Assembly: GCA_964291215.2 (NCBI GenBank)
Contig: OZ219791.1
Location: 192,001-256,000, forward strand
DNA from: Alphaproteobacteria bacterium
Lineage (GTDB): Bacteria > Pseudomonadota > Alphaproteobacteria > MPNO01 > UBA830
Length of the DNA: 64,000 nt
Direction of reading: 5' to 3'
Each line of letters starts with the position of its first letter. Position 1 is the stretch's first letter. Made by a program: the position numbers and the translations under genes. Positions 6,884-63,300 of this stretch are shown here, piece after piece. The notes under the pieces are model-generated. The model was not told the DNA's origin. It saw only the letters and a list, made by a program, of their open reading frames with translations, and did not search any database.

Positions 6884-6970
6884 TGGTGCCCAGGAGAAGA
6901 CTCGAACTTCCACGGCCTTGCGGCCACAGGTACCTGAAACCTGCGCGTCTACCAATTCCGCCACCTGGGC
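6884..6970 (-). tRNA. tRNA-Leu(CAG)
   Basis: GCCCAGGTGGCGGAATTGGTAGACGCG-CAGGT-TTCAGGT-ACCTG, long variable arm, GTTCGAGTC, encoded CCA. Confidence 0.96.
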
Positions 6971-10172: not shown

Positions 10173-10624
10173 GAAGGAGGCGAGGTTCGGGAATGTCCCC
10201 GGCGCCGCAAGCACCAGCAGTCGCGTGTTGTTCGCGATCAGATCAAGCCACTGCTGCTCCGGCTTCCAGCCAATCCACCGGTCGTGCGGACGACACTTGA
10301 AGGCCGCGTTCTGCCACGTCGCCAGACCCGGCCACTACCCCCTGAAGGACGCAATATGGCGCAGCCCCGCCAGACGGCGAAACCCGAGATAGTCGTCCAT
10401 CAACGCAGCGGACGCTCCTCAGGCTTCGCGAACCTCGGACAGACCCTTCCGGAGCTGCGACGTGAATCGGACAGGACGCGATGTGCTTGCGAACCGACAT
10501 CCCCGCACCATGACAACTCCAGTGCAGGAAAGCCAGCGAAAACTGCAAAAAAATCTCCTCACACCAACCCGCGCCCCCCTAAACCCAGGTGCTGCCTTGA
10601 AAAACAAACAGAATTTAGCGTAGG
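10173..10624 (-). mobile_element. DUF4338-ISAs1 element, left end and DUF4338 start (copy A), truncated at IS66
   Basis: About 190 bp nearly identical to 54015-54203; DUF4338-like fragments (YLGFRRLAGLR, RWIGWKPEQ). Confidence 0.65.
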
Positions 10625-21360: not shown

Positions 21361-22662
21361 AGCATCCATGTTTCTTGGCAAGGTTTTTGCGGGTGTCTGT
21401 GGTGATGTTTTCTGTGGTTGTCCACAAGCGGTGTGGGATTTGCTCTGCGAGCGAGGCGACATGAAGCTTGTGGTCCCGGCGGCGGGTTGCCGTCCATTGG
21501 TCACGTGAACGCGGCTACCTTGCCGTCCAGCGTCTCCGGGCATGGTAACGTGACCGTCGTCAATTGGGTTCCAGGTGTCCCAAGGCGGTTCGATCTCCTC
21601 GATGTCGGCCTCGACGATGATCTGCAGACATTCTCCCCAAGTCGTGTCGTAGAGGGAGACTGTCGAGACAGTCCCGATCGCGCTCTCGGCAGGGCCGTGT
21701 CTCCTTCGCTCACTCACCGGTGCTTCAGGCAACGCTGCTGTCGCAGCAAGGTGTTCGCCAGAGCTTGCGCATCACGGCGACAATCGCGACCTTGCTTGCC
21801 GGCAGTCTTGAGGCGCACCAGGTCCGCGTTGAAGCGTGCCGGTTGCGGCCAGGAGATCACGTGGCCTGCCCGCCACGGATGTGCCGAGCACCGTGGTCGT
21901 TGGCGCCACCCCGATCAAGGCTGCCGACGCTGCCGAGTTCGGGCATCCAGCAAAGAAAAGCCGTGGCGGTCACCGGATCGAGGTCAGGATGGCGTAGCTC
22001 TGCTCGGGATCACCGGCGATCACCGCTTTGATCGCCGCGCCGGCGGTCATCGAGATCGGCCGCCGAGGCCCTTGTGACGGTCTCGCCATCCACCTCATCT
22101 GCCACGCGTCGACAAGCGCGGCACCAGGAGATCCTCCAGGCTCTTGAGGAAGGCGGAGCCACAGGCTCACCGTGCCAATCCTGGCGTCGACGCGGTTGGC
22201 CCATCGCCTCGGCGAAGCGCCCGCAACGGGTTGACGAGAATAACCTCGAAGCCCCGGTCATGAAGACACTGGTAAACCTTGCGGTGATAGCGGCCTGTCG
22301 CCCACCACCCGGCTCACCCCGAGGCCGCGAAGCCACCTGCTCGTGGCGTCGTTCGCAAAACAATGCGCCAGATGTCCAGACTGGCTGACCCCTGCTACTA
22401 CCTTGACCATCGCTCCTCGCCTTGTGATGATACGGGTTCAGGCATCCATGCGAGGGACGTCAAGGGAGGTTGCCAAACTCGGACGCGGCTCTGTCAAGGT
22501 CAAAACGGCAACCTCCGCGGAGATCGTTTGATCCCCTGTGCGTGTTCGCTCAGGGGAGCGGAATCTCTCTGCAACCATAGCTCTCCCACAGATCCACATT
22601 TTCCCGCCCCCAACTGCTGTGGATGATTTCATCATCAAGGGGACAAAACCTGGTCATATAAG
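21361..22662 (-). mobile_element. IS110-family element, copy 1
   Basis: Homologous to 54202-55634; CT core at both ends; Tnp remnant 21714-22410 (MVKVVAGV, RFAEAMG, MPELG, VAIVAVMRKL). Confidence 0.85.
22411..22660 (-). ncRNA. Predicted IS110 bridge RNA region, copy 1
   Basis: Left non-coding end carrying TGACCT/GTCCGAG (target-like) and CATGGATGC/ACAAG (donor-like) segments. Confidence 0.65.
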
Positions 22663-35834: not shown

Positions 35835-37184
35835 ATGGTGTCGAGCGCCGACACCGGAAGCCTCGTCGCGGCAGACGGCCTCTGCGACCTGACCGCCACC
35901 GAGGCGGCGCAGCAGATCGCGACAGGGGAGATCACCTCCGAGGCCCTGGTTGGCGCCTGCCTCGAACGCATCGGGAAATGCAATGGCGAGCTCCGCGCCT
36001 GGCGGTTCGTCGACCCCGACCTGGCACTCGAACAGGCGTGCGAGAGGGACGGGGCCGCCGGCGCCCGCGAACCGCTGCACGGCGTGCCGGTCGGCGTGAA
36101 GGATGTTCTCGACACGTTCGACATGCCGACGGAGTACGGCTCGGCACTCTACAGCGGACACCGGCCGGCGACCGATTCCAACTGCGTCGCGGCGCTTCGA
36201 AGAGCGGGCGCCGTCATACTCGGCAAGACCACGACGACAGAGTTCGCGAGCCCGGTTCCGGTCGGCGTGCGCAACCCGCACGATGCGGACCGGACGCCTG
36301 GCGTTTCCTCCGGCGGCTCGGCAGCAGCCGTCGCCGCCTTCATGACACCGCTCGCCAACGGCACCCAGACCGGCGGCTCGGTCATCCTGCCGGCGGCCTT
36401 TTGCGGAGTGGTCGGATACAAGGCATCGCTCGACGGTCTCGACCGGGGCGGCATCCGGAGCCTCAAGCCACATCTCGACACGCTCGGCTATTTCGCAAGA
36501 TCGGTGGCCGATATCGGGCTGGTCTACAGCGCGGTGACGGGAGAGAGCGCCGCCACAGCCGATACGCGGCCGCGCATCGGGTTATGCCGCACCGGAGCCT
36601 GGAACGAAGCGGAACCCGCGACGAGGACGGTGCTCGAGAATGCCGCCGCGGCACTCGGCGCGGCCGGCTATGACGTCGCGGACATCGACCTGCCGCCGGA
36701 GTTCGACGTCATCGAGGGCGCATTCCGGGTGATTTCCAATTTCGAGGGAAAACAGGCGCTGGCGGAAGAATACCGCACCGGCATCGACGGCATGAACCAC
36801 TGGCTTCAGGAGACAGGCAGATCATCCTGGACGCAGGACGACTACGATGGGGCGCGCGCCACGGCGGCGGCGGCCCGGACCGCCCTCGGCAAGATCTTCG
36901 AGACGTTTCCTGTCCTTCTGACGCCGTCGACCGCGGGAGAGGCGCCGACAGACCTCGAGGGCGTGTCGATATCGTCGTTCAACCGCACCTGGACGCTGAT
37001 GCACGGGCCCGCGATCACGCTGCCCGTCGCGACCGGCCCTGCCGGGATGCCGCTCGGCGTGCAGCTGGTGGCGCGTCCGGGGGCGGACGCCGCGCTGATT
37101 TCATGGTCGGCCGAAATCGCGAATATCCTGAGTCGAGTCGCCCCGGAAAATCTCACCCCGAGGCGCTCACGAAACTGTACATGA
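35835..37184 (+). CDS. Amidase (amidase-signature family); last 17 codons come from the inserted element
   Basis: PLHGVPVGVKD, GKTTTTEFA, TPGVSSGGSAAAV, TQTGGS, GMPLGVQ. Confidence 0.9.
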   Translation: MVSSADTGSLVAADGLCDLTATEAAQQIATGEITSEALVGACLERIGKCNGELRAWRFVDPDLALEQACERDGAAGAREPLHGVPVGVKDVLDTFDMPTEYGSALYSGHRPATDSNCVAALRRAGAVILGKTTTTEFASPVPVGVRNPHDADRTPGVSSGGSAAAVAAFMTPLANGTQTGGSVILPAAFCGVVGYKASLDGLDRGGIRSLKPHLDTLGYFARSVADIGLVYSAVTGESAATADTRPRIGLCRTGAWNEAEPATRTVLENAAAALGAAGYDVADIDLPPEFDVIEGAFRVISNFEGKQALAEEYRTGIDGMNHWLQETGRSSWTQDDYDGARATAAAARTALGKIFETFPVLLTPSTAGEAPTDLEGVSISSFNRTWTLMHGPAITLPVATGPAGMPLGVQLVARPGADAALISWSAEIANILSRVAPENLTPRRSRNCT

Positions 37185-37290
37185 CAGTCTCCCGTCATAC
37201 GGCTCTTCCTGCCCAAACCTGACGGCTTTTCCTGTGTCATCGGGTTCCTCCTGTTGTCAGTTGTTCCGATTTACCTCCTGTTGTCTTCGT
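37132..37290 (-). ncRNA. Group II intron 3' portion (collapsed DIV, DV, DVI), ORF-less
   Basis: GGAGGAACCCGATG..AAGCCG start region joined to GAGCCGTATGACGGGAGACTGTCATGTACAGTTTC (DV) and DVI ending CTCGAC. Confidence 0.75.
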
Positions 37291-53820: not shown

Positions 53821-54201
53821 GTCACATACCTTCCTGATTCTTGCCGGATTGCCCGACGACCGCGGACTGTCGGCGATTCCCGTAGCAAAAGCAAATTCGC
53901 AAAGGCGACTCCGCAGCCCTCCACTGCCCGGCATAGCGCCGGGAGTTGCGGATCGATGGAAGCAATTGACGACACGCTCGGGGCGGCTGCGTCCGGTCCC
54001 GGGCAGGGCGATCTTACGCTAAATTCTGTATGATTTTTCAAGGCAGCACCTGGGTTTTGCGGGGGCGCGGGTTGGTGCGGGAGATTTTTTACAGTTTTCG
54101 CCGGCTTTCCTGCACTGGAGTTGTCATGGTGCGGGGATGTCGGTTCACAAGCACATCGCGTCCTGTCCGATTCACGTCGCAGCTCCGGAAGGGTCTGTCC
54201 G

Positions 54202-55634
54202 AGAATCCATGTTTCTTGGCAAGGTTTTTGCGGGTGTCTGCAATGATGTTTTTTGTGGTTGTCCACAAGCGGTGTGGGATTTGCCCTGCGAGCGAGGCGA
54301 CATGAAGCTTGTGGTCTCGGCGGCGGGTTGCCGTCCATTGGTCACGTGAACGCGGCTACCTTGCCGTCCCCGGGCATGGTAACGTGACCGTCCGGGTTCC
54401 AGGTGTCTCGTCCACAAGGCGGTTCGATCTCCTCGATGTCGGCCTCGACGATGATCTGCAGACATTCTCCCCAAGCCGTGTCGTAGAGGGAGACTGTCGA
54501 GACAGTCCCGATAGTGCTCCTGCACCGCACCGAGCCACCGCATCGCACCAGCGTTGCGTACGGGAACGACGGGGCTTTCGGTGGTGGAGGTGGGGGCCTT
54601 GCGGCGCGCGGCGCTGCCTCTCGGCAGGGCCGTGTCTCCTTCGCTCACTCACCGGTGCTTCAGGCAACGCTGCTGTCGCAGCAAGGTGTTTGCCAGAGCT
54701 TGCGCATCACGGCGACAATCGCGACCTTGCTTGCTGGCGGTCTTGAGGCGCACCAGGTCCGCGTTGAAGCGTGCCGGTTGCGGCCAGGAGATCGCGTGGC
54801 CTTCGGCGCCCGCCACGGATGTGCCGAGCACCGTGGCCGCTGTCGTTGGCCATCGGCGCCACCCCGATCAAGGCTGCCGACGCTGCCGAGTTCGGGCATC
54901 CAGAAGGGCCGTGGCGGTCACCGGACCGGGGATCGAGGTCAGGATGGCGTACCTCTGCTTGGGATCACCGGCGATCACCGCTTTGATCGCCGCACCGGCG
55001 ATCATCGAGATCGGCCGCCGAGGCCCTTGTGACGGTCTCGCCATCCACCTCATCTGCCACCTGCCTGGCGTCGACAAGCGCGCCACCAGGAGATCCTCCA
55101 GGCTCTTGAGGAAGGCGGAGCCACAGGCTCACCGTGCCGATCCTGGCGTCGACGCGGTTGGCCCATCGCCTCGGCGAAGCGCCCGCAACGGGTTGACGAG
55201 GATAACCTCGAAGCCCCGGTCATGAAGACACTGGTGAACCTTGCGGTGATAGCGGCCTGTCGCCCACCACCCGGCTCACCTCGAGGCCGCGAAGCCACCT
55301 GCCCGTGGCGTCGTTCGCAAAACAATGCGCCAGATGTCCAGACTGGCTGACCCCTGCTACTACCTTGACCATCGCTCCTCACCTTGTGATGATACGGGTT
55401 CAAACCCGGGCATCCAGCGAAGGACGCCAAGGGAGGTTGGCCGACCAAGCTCGGACGCGGCTCTGTCAAGGTCAAAACGGCAACCTCCGCGGAGATCGTT
55501 TGATCCCCTGTGCGTGTTCGCTCAGGGGAGCGGAATCTCTCTGCAACCATAGCTCTCCCACAGATCCACATTTTCCCGCCCCCAACCGCTGTGGATGATT
55601 GCATCATCAAGGGGACAAAACCTGGTCATACAAG
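54202..55634 (-). mobile_element. IS110-family element, copy 2
   Basis: CT core at both ends; Tnp remnant 54649-55372 (SIPG.GPVTA-like, MPELG, KVAIVAVMRKL). Confidence 0.85.
55373..55632 (-). ncRNA. Predicted IS110 bridge RNA region, copy 2
   Basis: Stem GGAGGTTG/CAACCTCC enclosing TGACCT and GTCCGAG; second loop TGGATGC-[CGGGTT/AACCCG]-ACAAG. Confidence 0.7.
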
Positions 55635-56045
55635 GTCGAGGTGATTACGCTTGGTCAGGCCGGATGAGCGTCCGCTGTGGGATGCGTTGATGGACGACTA
55701 TCCCGGGTTTCGCCGTCTGGCGGGGCTGCACCATATTGCGTCCTTCAGGGGGCAGTGGTCTGGCGGCGTGACGGGGCCTTCAAGTGCCGCGGCCGGTGGA
55801 TTGGCTGGAAGCCGGAGCAGCAGTGGCTTGATCTGACAACACGCGACTGCTTGCGGCGCCGGGAACGTTTCCGAACCTTGCCTCCTTCTTTCTTGCGACG
55901 CGGCGGCTGGCCGATGACTGGGCCTGCGGCCACCAGGTGGCGGAGACGTTCTGCGATCCGGAGCGTTTTGCGGGCACAAGGCGGCGGGCTGGCGTGCCAA
56001 GAGGTTTGCCCGCGCCAACGGGCGCTGCACCGACCCCCATGGTAA

Positions 56046-60310: not shown

Positions 60311-63300
60311 GTAACTGCTCACCCCCTGGTTCCGGCTTGATGTCGGGGTAGAGCAACAAACGAGGTTTCGTGGAGATTTGACACTGCATGCCGATTCGCT
60401 TAGTGGTGGTCATCGAGAACGACGGGGACCGCCAGTGGGCTACTTTCGATCGAAGGCGACGAGCGGGCTGTGCCAGCTGCTTCCGGGGCTCCAGCCCCCG
60501 CATGATCTGTATGTGGAAACGCATCTCGGAAGCGACGCGCTGATGAAGCGCAAGGCCGGGTGATGGCGACGGGCGGCGCGCGAGGAGTTCGAAGCGGCCA
60601 AGACCGCGGCGCTGCCGGCAAGGTGGCGGAAGAGGCCGTCATCCGCGTCTTCGTCATCCTGCTCGACATCATCATCGTCGTCCTTCTGGAGAAGACCACG
60701 CACGAGCCGGAACTCCGGTCTGCCGCCGTCACAGACGGACAAGAGCGTGCCGGAAGCAACGGCCCGAAGCCGAACCGGCAGATGGGCGACAACCTGCGCA
60801 AGATCATCGTCGAGGAAACGGTCGCAGCCTGCGACGCCTGCGGCACCGACATCGACGGCCCCGTCGATCGGGAGCGCCGCGTCCTCTATGACATCGTGTT
60901 CGAGGTCGTCGAGCGCCGCGCCGAGATCAAGGAATGCCCGAAGTGCAAGGCCCGGGGCCGGTTCCCCGACAACATCCCGTGCAGTGCGGCATCGGCATTC
61001 AGGCCCTCGTCATCAACCTGCTGGTCGCCCAGATGCTGTCCCTGCGCCGTCGCGCTCGTGCAGGCGATATCAAGCTCTCCGAGGCCTCGGCTATGCTTTC
61101 ACGATGCGTCATGGGAGGAGGCCGCCGTGGCGCACCTCCTGCAACGCCCGATGTCGACGATTTCGGATCAACAGTAAGTGGCTCCATGTCGTGGGACCCT
61201 GACGTGCAAGTTCCCGCACCGCAAGCGCGGCCGGGAGGCAAGAGATCGGCATCATCCCGTGCTACAAGGGCGTCCTGGACCTCGTACATGGGCCAGTGTA
61301 GCCACCAGCTGTGCGGCAGCCACCTGCTGCGCGAACTGACCTTTGTCGTCGAGGCTACCGCGCGACTGATGAAGAGCCTGCTCCCTGCCACAAGGTCAAC
61401 AAGAGCGCATCCAAAACCCTGAACGACGCCGGGCGCAAGCGCTACCGCACCATCAGGGCGCCAAGGAACTGCCCGACATCCCGACGAAAGGAAAACGTGG
61501 ACGCAAGTCCGACGCGCACAACCTGCACGAACGTCTCGTGAAACACGAAAACCTGCGCTTCATAGACAACCATCGCGGTAGGGAACCGGGTTACCCCCCG
61601 CACAGAACCGGACGTGCGCTGTTCGCTCCTCCCCTGACGACAAGGCGCTGGTTTGGCCACGGGCTCAGTGGGCAGCGGTGAGGGTGTCTATGTCCCCGGT
61701 GAAGTCCTTTTGGGAGCGTCGCCGAAGGGCACGCAGCTGTTTGCATTGGTGTATGAACTTCTGCAGGCTGCTTCCTGGAACGGCGTAGTAGCAGCCGTTG
61801 ATAACTCACCACTTGGCCGTTTCGTGCCGGTTATCGTGCCACCGCCTGCGCAAGGCCTCCTTGATCCGCCGCAGGGTGCCCGTTTGCGACCGACCCTGAA
61901 CCTGCCTTTCCTCGTCTGTTCGCAGAAGTGCGTCATGCCGAGGAAGTCGAACGTCTTGCCCACGCTTCCGGCGGTTCGCTCTGGCAAACCGACCGAACTC
62001 GATGATTTTCCGGGTGCAGTTCAAGTGGGCCAGTCTCTCCCCAAGGTCTCAGCGCCGCCCAGATGCTGAAAGCCGCACACGAAGTCGTCCGCATAGCGGA
62101 CAGTGATCGTGTCGCCTCCAGCCATCCGCTTGCGCCAGTGGTTCTGGAACCAGTCGTACGTAGTGCAGGTTCGCAAGGCGCCGCCCCTTGCGGTGTTCCC
62201 TTGCCAGTCGGTCCCTTCCATGACGCCGGCGTCACTTGATGATCAGACCCCCCGATCCGTTTCCCGAGCATCGCGACCAGATGGTCGCGGTTGTCGAAGG
62301 GGCGTCAACGATCCAGTTGACCTTCCGCCGTTCCACCGTGACGGCGCATGATGCGCCCCGGCCGGAAGCCGTAACTAAACCCGAGGAACTCCGTCTCGCG
62401 GCACCAGAATCACACCGCCCGCTGAAGAATCTTGTCCGAGGCAAGTTGCCCTCCATCCTCCTTGGGTATGTAAACCCTGGAGGCGCCCGCCCCTGTGCAC
62501 ACGGGCGTGCAGCAGTTCCACACCCTCCGCGTACGCTTGCCACACAACGCCCCGCCGCCGCGTCCTTCCTCAAGGAATGGAACGCATCGTGCAGAACGTC
62601 GACCGTCACGTGGTGGAGTAAAGACGCTCTTCCGGGTTCCTCTTCGCTACCTGCCGCCTGTGACCCCCGCTTCTGCGCGCGGCGCGGGCCAACCGCATTG
62701 CCCTTCCCTCCAACAACTCCGCAGGCTCCGAAGAACCCTTGTTCGCCGCCTTCAGCGGTACTATGGCCGAATCTGACTTCTCGTTCATCATCGGTTTACG
62801 GAATTTCCTCTGCGGCCCCTCCACGACAGAGGGGCAAGACCTCTCAGGTCCCTGCTTCGGCCCTGGTTCTCGGACCCCGCGGAGTTCCCCTCACCAACGC
62901 GGCTCGCAGGGTGTTGCCCACTCGGACGACCTCGGCACTCCGGTTTCAAAGCATCTCGTGGCTCAATAGCCTGGCCTGCCGCTCCCCAACGCTTCGCCTG
63001 GCGACGCATGGTTCACGGAGAAATTAGCCTCTCTCGGGACTTGCACCCGGCCACATTCCACCAGTTTGCCTGGCGCACCCGATGTCAGCTTCACCAACAA
63101 TGCCGGAGAACAGAAAATCAGGATGGCAAAGGTCAAGGTGTCCGGATGCTTCCGCTCCACGCAAAAGCATGGTGCCGGGGCTCAAGCTACCTCACCTCCA
63201 TGGCCGCACTCGGCTACAACCCACTCGTCGCCACCCAGATCGCCCTCGACGGAAAAGCCGCAGACATCATCAACGAGCACTATGGCCAATCAGAACCCAA

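Follow-up and report, generated by a model that had tools for sequence, protein, structure and literature searches.

The closest described system to the element analysed here is IS621 of E. coli, an insertion sequence (IS) of the IS110 family. In the parts of Durrant et al. 2024 (PMC11208160) that concern its bridge RNA, loop 1 takes the target and loop 2 the donor; the 5′ sides of the loops pair with the bottom strand and the 3′ sides with the top strand, and the core is included in each. The corresponding parts of Hiraizumi et al. (PMC11208158) give the same scheme for IS621, including a discontiguous right donor guide. Bridge RNAs have been predicted in 85.7% of catalogued IS110s, with guide–target co-variation over thousands of elements, as the same parts of Durrant et al. 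report. We analysed two decayed copies of an IS110-family element in a stretch of 64,000 nucleotides (nt), here called the window, from an Alphaproteobacteria bacterium (GenBank assembly GCA_964291215.2, contig OZ219791.1, positions 192,001 to 256,000 of the forward strand). The left end of this dead element is very probably the relic of a bridge RNA that would guide the recombinase in working relatives and, because bridge RNAs are already predicted across IS110s, the element is another member of a known RNA-guided family.

Like IS621, the element has a recombinase with a DEDD domain and a serine, a CT core and an RNA (a predicted one here) encoded in the left end. The order of parts is also the same, namely 5′ hairpin(s), target module and donor module, with each module running from its stem through the 5′ guide and the inner hairpin to the 3′ guide. 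In both systems the 5′ guide reads like the top strand and the 3′ guide like its reverse complement, each with the core included, and the right donor guide is discontiguous (by one bulge in this element). The promoter halves, putative in this element, lie one in the right end and one in the left. The lengths differ: the IS621 RNA, as given in the published parts cited above, has 177 nt, whereas the leader here has ~315 nt, its target module being preceded by ~170 nt that include several hairpins. The left guide comprises 4–5 nt plus core (7 plus core in IS621), and the right guide 5–7 nt plus core (2 plus core in IS621). Unlike IS621, the element carries a conserved second gene of 96 amino acids (aa) after the recombinase and a right end of ~255 nt, its copies in the window are dead, and the family is known from sequence alone.

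Three other described systems are relevant. ISCro4 (PDB 9t56), the second solved homologue, is likened to the element by protein sequence only. The IS1111 group, which uses a seekRNA, shares the recombinase family and the RNA-guided logic but, in the cited parts of PMC11208160, has its RNA in the right end and longer sub-terminal inverted repeats, whereas the guides here lie in the left end. ISPpu10 of Pseudomonas putida is likewise an IS110 element with all of its insertions in copies of one repeated sequence; it has one target, according to the part of the preprint used here (bioRxiv 10.64898/2026.03.19.712850), whereas several guide classes and targets coexist in the genome we analysed. No description of this element family or of its second gene was found in open-access papers and preprints, supplements excluded.

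Target guides and insertion sites

The two copies match blockwise at 95–98% identity, with small insertions and deletions between the blocks, and both are relics without a working recombinase. Their parts, in window coordinates, are as follows.

54202..55632, minus strand: copy 2 of the IS110-family element, 1,431 nt including the terminal CT at 54203-54202; decayed, no intact reading frame
55633..55641, minus strand: left target half CCTCGAC (55641-55635) and core CT (55634-55633) of copy 2
54197..54201, minus strand: right target half CGGAC of copy 2
55373..55632, minus strand: left non-coding end of copy 2, probable bridge-RNA relic of 260 nt, by alignment, structure counts and fold
55625..55630, minus strand: −10-like hexamer TATGAC in the left end of copy 2, which joins TTGCCA only upon circularisation
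54217..54222, minus strand: −35-like hexamer TTGCCA in the right end of copy 2
55505..55533, minus strand: remnant of the long 5′ hairpin of copy 2 (CCGCTCCCCTG...CAGGGG); both window copies have lost the outer 3′ strand
55432..55488, minus strand: putative target-binding module of copy 2, with the stem GGAGGTTG (55488-55481)/CAACCTCC (55439-55432) around both target guides; the inner hairpin has lost its 5′ half
55469..55474, minus strand: left target guide TGACCT of copy 2 (target CGAC-CT, one mismatch)
55450..55456, minus strand: right target guide GTCCGAG of copy 2, exact reverse complement of CT-CGGAC
55410..55416, minus strand: left donor guide TGGATGC of copy 2
55383..55392, minus strand: right donor guide TCATCACAAG of copy 2, with the ACAAG part at 55387-55383
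54650..55372, minus strand: remnant of the DEDD/serine recombinase gene of copy 2, with many small deletions; recombinase-like ATG at 55372-55370; intact homologue in the relative L064
54405..54636 (limits approximate), minus strand: remnant of the second open reading frame (ORF2) of copy 2, 96 aa in relatives
21361..22660, minus strand: copy 1 of the same element, 1,300 nt, decayed; flanks CCATGAC-CT (22669-22661) and CGGTC (21360-21356)
22662-22661, minus strand: core CT at the left junction of copy 1
22411..22660, minus strand: left end of copy 1, probable bridge-RNA relic of 250 nt, with guides TGACCT (22502-22497) and GTCCGAG (22484-22478)
22450-22442 and 22430-22421, minus strand: donor guides CATGGATGC and TCATCACAAG of copy 1

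All strings on which a first-pass annotation of the window had based a readable bridge RNA are present where it had placed them on the minus strand, and the rejoined targets that it gave, CCATGAC-CT-CGGTC for copy 1 and CCTCGAC-CT-CGGAC for copy 2, proved correct. When the flanks were rejoined with a single CT, they aligned without a break to 1–34 other places in the genome, at up to 100% identity; the ends of the element are therefore exact and the insertion is simple at a CT core. Indeed, CT stands at both junctions and no longer target duplication is seen. TGACCT, read as the left target half plus core, matches that of copy 1 (TGAC-CT), while in copy 2 the target is CGAC, with one mismatch at −4. 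GTCCGAG, read as the reverse complement of the right target half plus core, is exact for copy 2 and has one mismatch to the CGGTC of copy 1.

In the left-end alignment, which is conserved elsewhere, the guide columns vary most, and they do so together with each copy's own flanks, as can be seen from the following classes.

Target CGTC-CT-CGGGA: left guide CGTCCT, right guide TCCCGAG
Target CGAC-CT-CGGAC: left guide CGACCT, right guide GTCCGAG
Target TGAC-CT-CGGTC: left guide TGACCT, right guide GACCGAG
Target TCAC-CT-CGCTC: left guide TCACCT, right guide GAGCGAG
Target TGAC-CT-CGATC: left guide TGACCT, right guide GATCGAG

The first-pass annotation had put forward one target consensus, TGAC-CT-CGGAC, as something to test for, and had counted insertions at sites lacking GACCTCGG as a point against a bridge RNA. 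The single consensus did not hold, since there are at least 11 right-guide classes, each with its own target. Many copies do lie at sites of the other kind (CGTC-CT-CGGGA, TCAC-CT-CGCTC and TGAC-CT-CGATC), but their guides have changed to match, so that these copies strengthen the bridge-RNA reading rather than refute it.

We counted guide matches in 70 records (56 genome copies and 14 relatives), of which 20 were dropped (19 without a left junction, and L063, whose guide could not be parsed). Because copies are not all independent, the remaining 50 were collapsed to 39 site/guide combinations, these to 30 distinct sites, and these to 19 distinct guide pairs; one left guide (copy C2_261250) was mis-parsed by the script and scored worse than it really is. 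Over the 30 sites the guides agree with their targets at 228 of 270 positions; shuffling the guides among sites gave a mean of 137.7. The left guide taken separately gives 96 of 120 (69.8 shuffled) and the right guide 132 of 150 (67.8 shuffled), and the 19 guide pairs give 144 of 171 (95.4 shuffled); in each of the four comparisons, 0 of 10,000 shuffles reached the observed value. Over the nine guide positions, the 39 combinations have no mismatch in 11 cases (21 copies), one in 12, two in 8, three in 6 and four in 2. The right target found most often in a class is an exact reverse complement of the guide in 9 of the 11 right-guide classes.

The rule extends to intact relatives at unique flanks in genomes of other Alphaproteobacteria. 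L059, with unique flanks, lies at TCGC-CT-GGCACAC and has the guides TCGCCT and GTGTGCCAG; the L064 family, also with unique flanks, occupies six sites around TGGC-CT-CTCTT with TGGCCT and GCAAGAGAG; and L062, again in unique sequence, lies at GCCGAC-CT-CAATG with GCCGACCT and CATTGAG. In the L072 family the guide GATCAAG is found at five distinct sites (seven loci), four of them reading CT-TGATC and one CT-TGTTC. L063, judged by eye, follows the rule as well. The right guide GCGATAG of L046, a more distant relative, fits its right flank CT-ATCGC.

In principle the element adds little, being one more IS110 family with legible guides. Its copies in the genome and its intact relatives, however, make up a compact natural reprogramming series, with at least 11 right-guide and at least 13 left-guide variants whose natural targets are known, several of them with natural one-mismatch insertions. 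Such a series lets one read which positions are specified (−4 to −1, the core, and +1 to +5/7) and how far mismatches are tolerated.

Leader structure, donor guides and the two genes

The left-end alignment comprises 16 sequences (6 relatives, the distant L046 and 9 genome copies). RNAalifold recovered from it the stem that closes the target loop, with compensatory changes at 4 pairs. A model of 55 pairs in seven helices has, besides the long 5′ hairpin and a short one, the target module, whose outer stem has 11 + 3 pairs, and the donor module, whose outer stem has 14; both modules have an inner hairpin, that of the donor module being small. In this model 93.5% of cells pair, against 36–52% with slid partners, but the sequences counted are those from which the model was made, which flatters the slid control. 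Thirteen pairs are changed on both sides, against 4.8 in shuffles (0/500), four of them in helix 1 (the long 5′ hairpin) and four in helix 3 (the target stem). The leader of the intact relative L064 folds into the modular form with a lower energy than 100 of 100 shuffles (z −3.46). No Rfam family reached its gathering score in the locus in the window, where only noise was seen at expectation values (E) up to 10; whether Rfam 15 holds a bridge-RNA model was not established.

The left end thus has the two-module structure in intact relatives (~315 nt), with stems partly deleted in the copies in the window. As seen from the alignment, these copies lost ~8 nt at each of two spots in the 5′ hairpins and 13 nt where the long hairpin ends; in the target module, 6 nt from the outer stem and the inner hairpin's 5′ half; and, beyond it, 7–8 nt of the donor stem and 7 nt ahead of the start codon. 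The leader of roughly 260 nt noted in the first pass is true to copy 2, but it is a shortened form of the ~315-nt leader. The extra 5′ hairpins seen then are real in close relatives and, with the exception of the long hairpin just upstream of the loops, poorly conserved in L046. The overall layout proposed for the locus, that of IS110 bridge RNAs with the target loop first and the donor loop second, is borne out by guide co-variation, by the relatives at unique sites and by the compensatory stems. The proposed check for co-variation across homologues gave a positive answer both for the guides, which co-vary with targets and donor ends, and for the closing stems with their compensatory changes.

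The second loop corresponds to the element's own ends: its 5′ side equals the right-end terminus plus core, and its 3′ side the reverse complement of core plus left-end terminus. The left donor guide ATGGATGC faces a right end ...ATGGATG-CT in nearly all copies; the equation of TGGATGC with the right end plus CT is thus right for most of them, but copy 2 itself reads ATGGATT-CT. On the other side, ACAAG is the reverse complement of CT-TGT, and the right donor guide also pairs with left-end ATGA if one base is bulged. Where the left end is TGT, ACAAG is found in 10 of 10 cases; where it is TAT, the guide reads ATAAG in 18, GTAAG (with a G.T wobble) in 13 and a mismatched ACAAG in 3. Copy 1 is among the last three, so the match of ACAAG to the left end, correct for the TGT class, does not extend to it. 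As the left donor side hardly varies, co-variation tests the right donor guide only.

When right and left ends were joined by script, TTGNNN, 17 nt and TANNN[TC] were found in 55 of 63 elements, as a sequence match only. In 44 elements the junction reads TTGCCA-17-TATGAC, and in L046 TTGACT-17-TATGTT; the 8 elements without it have lost the left end. These hexamers fit the split promoter described for IS110 circles in the cited parts of PMC11208160.

The element belongs to the IS110 family, IS110 group. In this genome (G000; two contigs, C1 and C2, 6.15 Mb, 99.3% complete) we found 62 left and 68 right ends, and the recombinase frame is intact in none of the 56 copies having both. Fragments of one of the longest copies nevertheless match PF01548 (33 bits, cut-off 29) and PF02371 (33.6 bits, cut-off 21.3). 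Only two intact PF01548 frames exist in the genome (429 and 431 aa), both where no copy of the element was found. A search with a 230-aa piece of the recombinase at E ≤ 1e-10 in 61 genomes, G000 included, matched three other genomes, the best being G001 with 54% identity. A scan with one genome per species gave 28 related loci, in uncultured Alphaproteobacteria, at 70–81% DNA identity over the full length, several of them intact. L046 (G001 contig C47, minus strand 868-2325) is an intact, more distant relative from the same genus, with 54% protein identity.

The intact layout is that of L064: a left end of ~315 nt, a 315-aa recombinase (start MDKVVAGIDVSK), the 96-aa second gene and a right end of ~255 nt. 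The L064 recombinase scores 78 bits with PF01548 and 64.2 bits with PF02371. It aligns with the IS621 transposase (8wt6) at E 5.8e-29 over residues 6–300, with GID, EATG, KTDxVDA and SG in register, and over its full length with the ISCro4 transposase (9t56) at E 2.1e-25. Both IS110 domains are therefore present in the genome fragments and in L064, namely PF01548 (DEDD, RuvC-like) at the N-terminus and PF02371 (Tnp, with the catalytic serine) at the C-terminus; in the window the gene is broken. Judged by sequence, the element has the domains, the CT-core insertion, the two-module left end and the two guide loops by which the IS110 group is recognised, together with a putative split promoter; expression, binding and reprogramming go beyond these features.

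ORF2 (96 aa, MALTPAEKQRRYRERRK...GYGRDT) is open in nearly all related elements, among which it is 73–100% identical, and follows the recombinase in all close intact relatives (3311-3601 in L064). No intact copy was found in this genome, and the gene is not present in the L046 element. A database search returned 763 relatives at E ≤ 0.001, all unnamed or ‘hypothetical’; there was no Pfam match, and the Atlas gave only unnamed clusters. The longer 5′ leader and this conserved small second protein may bear on the control of such systems.

In a working element, the excised circle would join the right and left ends, setting TTGCCA and TATGAC 17 nt apart, and the joined ends would drive an RNA of ~300 nt. 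This RNA would be bound by the recombinase, with its DEDD domain and serine, and its loop 2 would take up the joined ends (through AUGGAUGC, and through UCAUC-A[C/U]AAG with one bulge), and strand exchange at the CT core would lead to a simple insertion with no duplication beyond the core. Within this genome the guides diversified into at least 11 right-guide classes, each class at its own site and mostly inside other repeated elements, and all copies later decayed.

Host repeats and alternative explanations

The targets sit within other repeats, of 25–52 copies each. Nine long frames from three of these host repeats had no Pfam match. In the largest group of insertions, 11 copies at ACCGTC-CT-CGGGACA, the elements differ by 1.4% substitutions and their 800-nt flanks by 13.5%, and the two sets of distances are not positively correlated (Mantel r −0.39). 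The gap in divergence and the lack of correlation point to repeated insertion at one site in host copies that had already diverged. A second group, of at least 9 copies, has a common 8-nt deletion at the junction; these copies must have spread as passengers or by conversion, and their element and flank distances give a Mantel r of 0.28 (59 of 2000 permutations as high). One uninterrupted copy of a host repeat of the copy-2 type lies within the window:

10380..10495, plus strand: uninterrupted host-repeat copy with a copy-2-type target, 6 nt missing exactly at the target (GCGAAC-CTCGGACAG against GCGAACCTCGAC-CT-CGGACAG)

The 6-nt loss destroyed this target site. A search of the window for an intact empty target of the copy-1 or copy-2 type, with ≤2 mismatches, gave only 59068 and 30237, which is at chance level. 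Some copies have flanks from two target classes, one on the left and a different one on the right (as in the copy at C2:3385613, CTCCGTC-CT ... CT-CGGACAG), which suggests rearrangement through recombination between copies.

Several observations weigh against reading the left end as a bridge-RNA relic. Two to four mismatches are found in 16 of the 39 site/guide combinations, and many flanks are repeats, so that the copies are not all independent events. The left guide AAGATCCT of L046 does not fit its left flank GAATCG-CT; L046 may be a half-matched insertion. On the structural side, the circular derivation of the 55-pair model has been mentioned. In addition, an invariant local hairpin in the RNAalifold structure joins the left donor guide to GCGUCC, and co-variation cannot judge that pairing. 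The minimum-energy fold of copy 2 lacks the target-loop stem and is little better than chance (z −1.69, 9 of 200 shuffles as good). The stem GGAGGTTG/CAACCTCC, said in the first pass to enclose the guides, is thus supported by its strings, which are present and co-vary, and by its formation in L064, but not by the copy-2 fold; the alignment indicates that copy 2 fails to form it because deletions removed parts of stem and hairpin. Finally, a look for RNA sequencing runs containing the stretch found none listed; transcription, the ends of the RNA and protein binding would be as in IS621, from which they are carried over.

The repeated flanks make it necessary to ask if the apparent guides are guides at all, or if element and flank were co-amplified in larger repeats, with a likeness between loop and flank that is inherited or accidental. 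At least 40 nt of flank are indeed common to many copies, the targets lie in repeats of 25–52 copies, and the nine copies with the common junction deletion show the weak element–flank correlation given above. Co-amplification, however, leaves unexplained that 0 of 10,000 shuffles reach the match after collapse to 30 sites or 19 guide pairs, and that divergence among the elements of the largest group is a tenth of that among their flanks, with uncorrelated distances. Moreover, relatives in other genomes obey the same rule at unique, non-repeated flanks. This explanation is largely refuted, and we consider it highly unlikely.

Two further accounts place the choice of target elsewhere. If the protein alone picked the target, and the left end served to control recombinase expression, either as a structured 5′ leader or by binding a protein, two short, otherwise unconstrained loop segments would not be expected to track the target halves through 11 classes in a genome whose recombinases remain closely similar. 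The ribosome-binding region just before the ATG is indeed covered by the donor-module stem's 3′ strand, and the fold could thus affect translation; yet the homologous IS621 was shown to be RNA-guided (in the parts of PMC11208160 and PMC11208158 cited above), and a protein-only choice is very unlikely here. It is extremely improbable that the element is of the IS1111 type, with a seekRNA in its right end and the left-end matches secondary. That end is long for the IS110 group (~255 nt after ORF2 in L064), but the left end, at ~315 nt, exceeds it, the best structural matches are IS621 and ISCro4, and the four guide segments are all found before the recombinase, in the left end (the right end was not searched for further guide-like segments).

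Small deletions in repeats and other features

Compared with L059, each of 55 genome copies has 30–53 deletions and only 2–6 insertions, at ~7% substitutions. The deletions have a narrow length distribution: summed over copies, with shared events counted many times, there are 46 of 4 nt, 317 of 5, 568 of 6, 394 of 7 and 128 of 8, against 136 of 1 nt and 6 of 2–3 nt. In the parts of a study of pseudogenes that treat indel spectra (PMC6054270), lengths follow a power law and 1-nt events are the commonest. Here, the 11 near-identical copies of one group differ in 38 indel blocks and 70 variable columns, and pairs of copies 2–4 substitutions apart differ by 4–9 indels of 5–8 nt. This 5–7-nt deletion pattern killed the copies in the window and is the most surprising thing in the region; we offer no mechanism for it.

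The same 5–7-nt peak was present in 4 of 4 other repeat families examined, and absent among related elements in other genomes at 10–19% divergence. Hardly any of it is seen in 147 kb of unique DNA compared with G001, where gaps of 1 nt prevail (105 and 79) and gaps of 5–8 nt number 11 missing from G000 and 0 missing from G001. Common deletion characters are compatible in 8% of pairs, against 42% for substitutions, and this conflict suggests either that deletions recur at the same places or that conversion has been patchy. Near-identical copies share the deletions in a mosaic fashion.

Several candidate causes were rejected. Slippage as the main cause does not fit 43 of 89 events, which are without microhomology, and 20 more have 1 nt of it; nor was a boundary motif seen in 37 unambiguous events. 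End joining by Ku was set aside since no Ku gene was found in the genome. Self-targeting by CRISPR was set aside as well, since there are two Cas1 loci but 0 of 111 spacers match elsewhere in the genome at ≤4 mismatches. Assembly error is unlikely, as contigs of three runs from one study, which may include the assembly's own data, have neither extra nor lost letters over the window.

Loops of more than ~4 nt are ignored by mismatch repair, a limit that might set the lower size of the deletions. It is conceivable, though we hold it only tentatively and think it less probable than not, that the bacterium disarms mobile DNA, bridge-RNA elements included, by a repeat-directed process that punches out pieces of 5–7 nt repeatedly at the same places. 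If true, directed deletion would be a bacterial counterpart of fungal repeat-induced mutation and a new way of silencing mobile elements.

Other features of the window and genome were noted in passing. CRISPR arrays with 36-nt repeats lie beside Cas1 genes at G000 C1:574247-581180 and C2:2068487-2069543, with 95 and 16 spacers; one of the two Cas1 lies within a 599-aa open frame. In the window there is a transfer RNA at 6887-6970, and on the minus strand, at 62865-63043 and 37132-37207, there are matches above the gathering score to group II intron RNA domains (RF02005, 66.6 bits, and RF00029, 48.9 bits).

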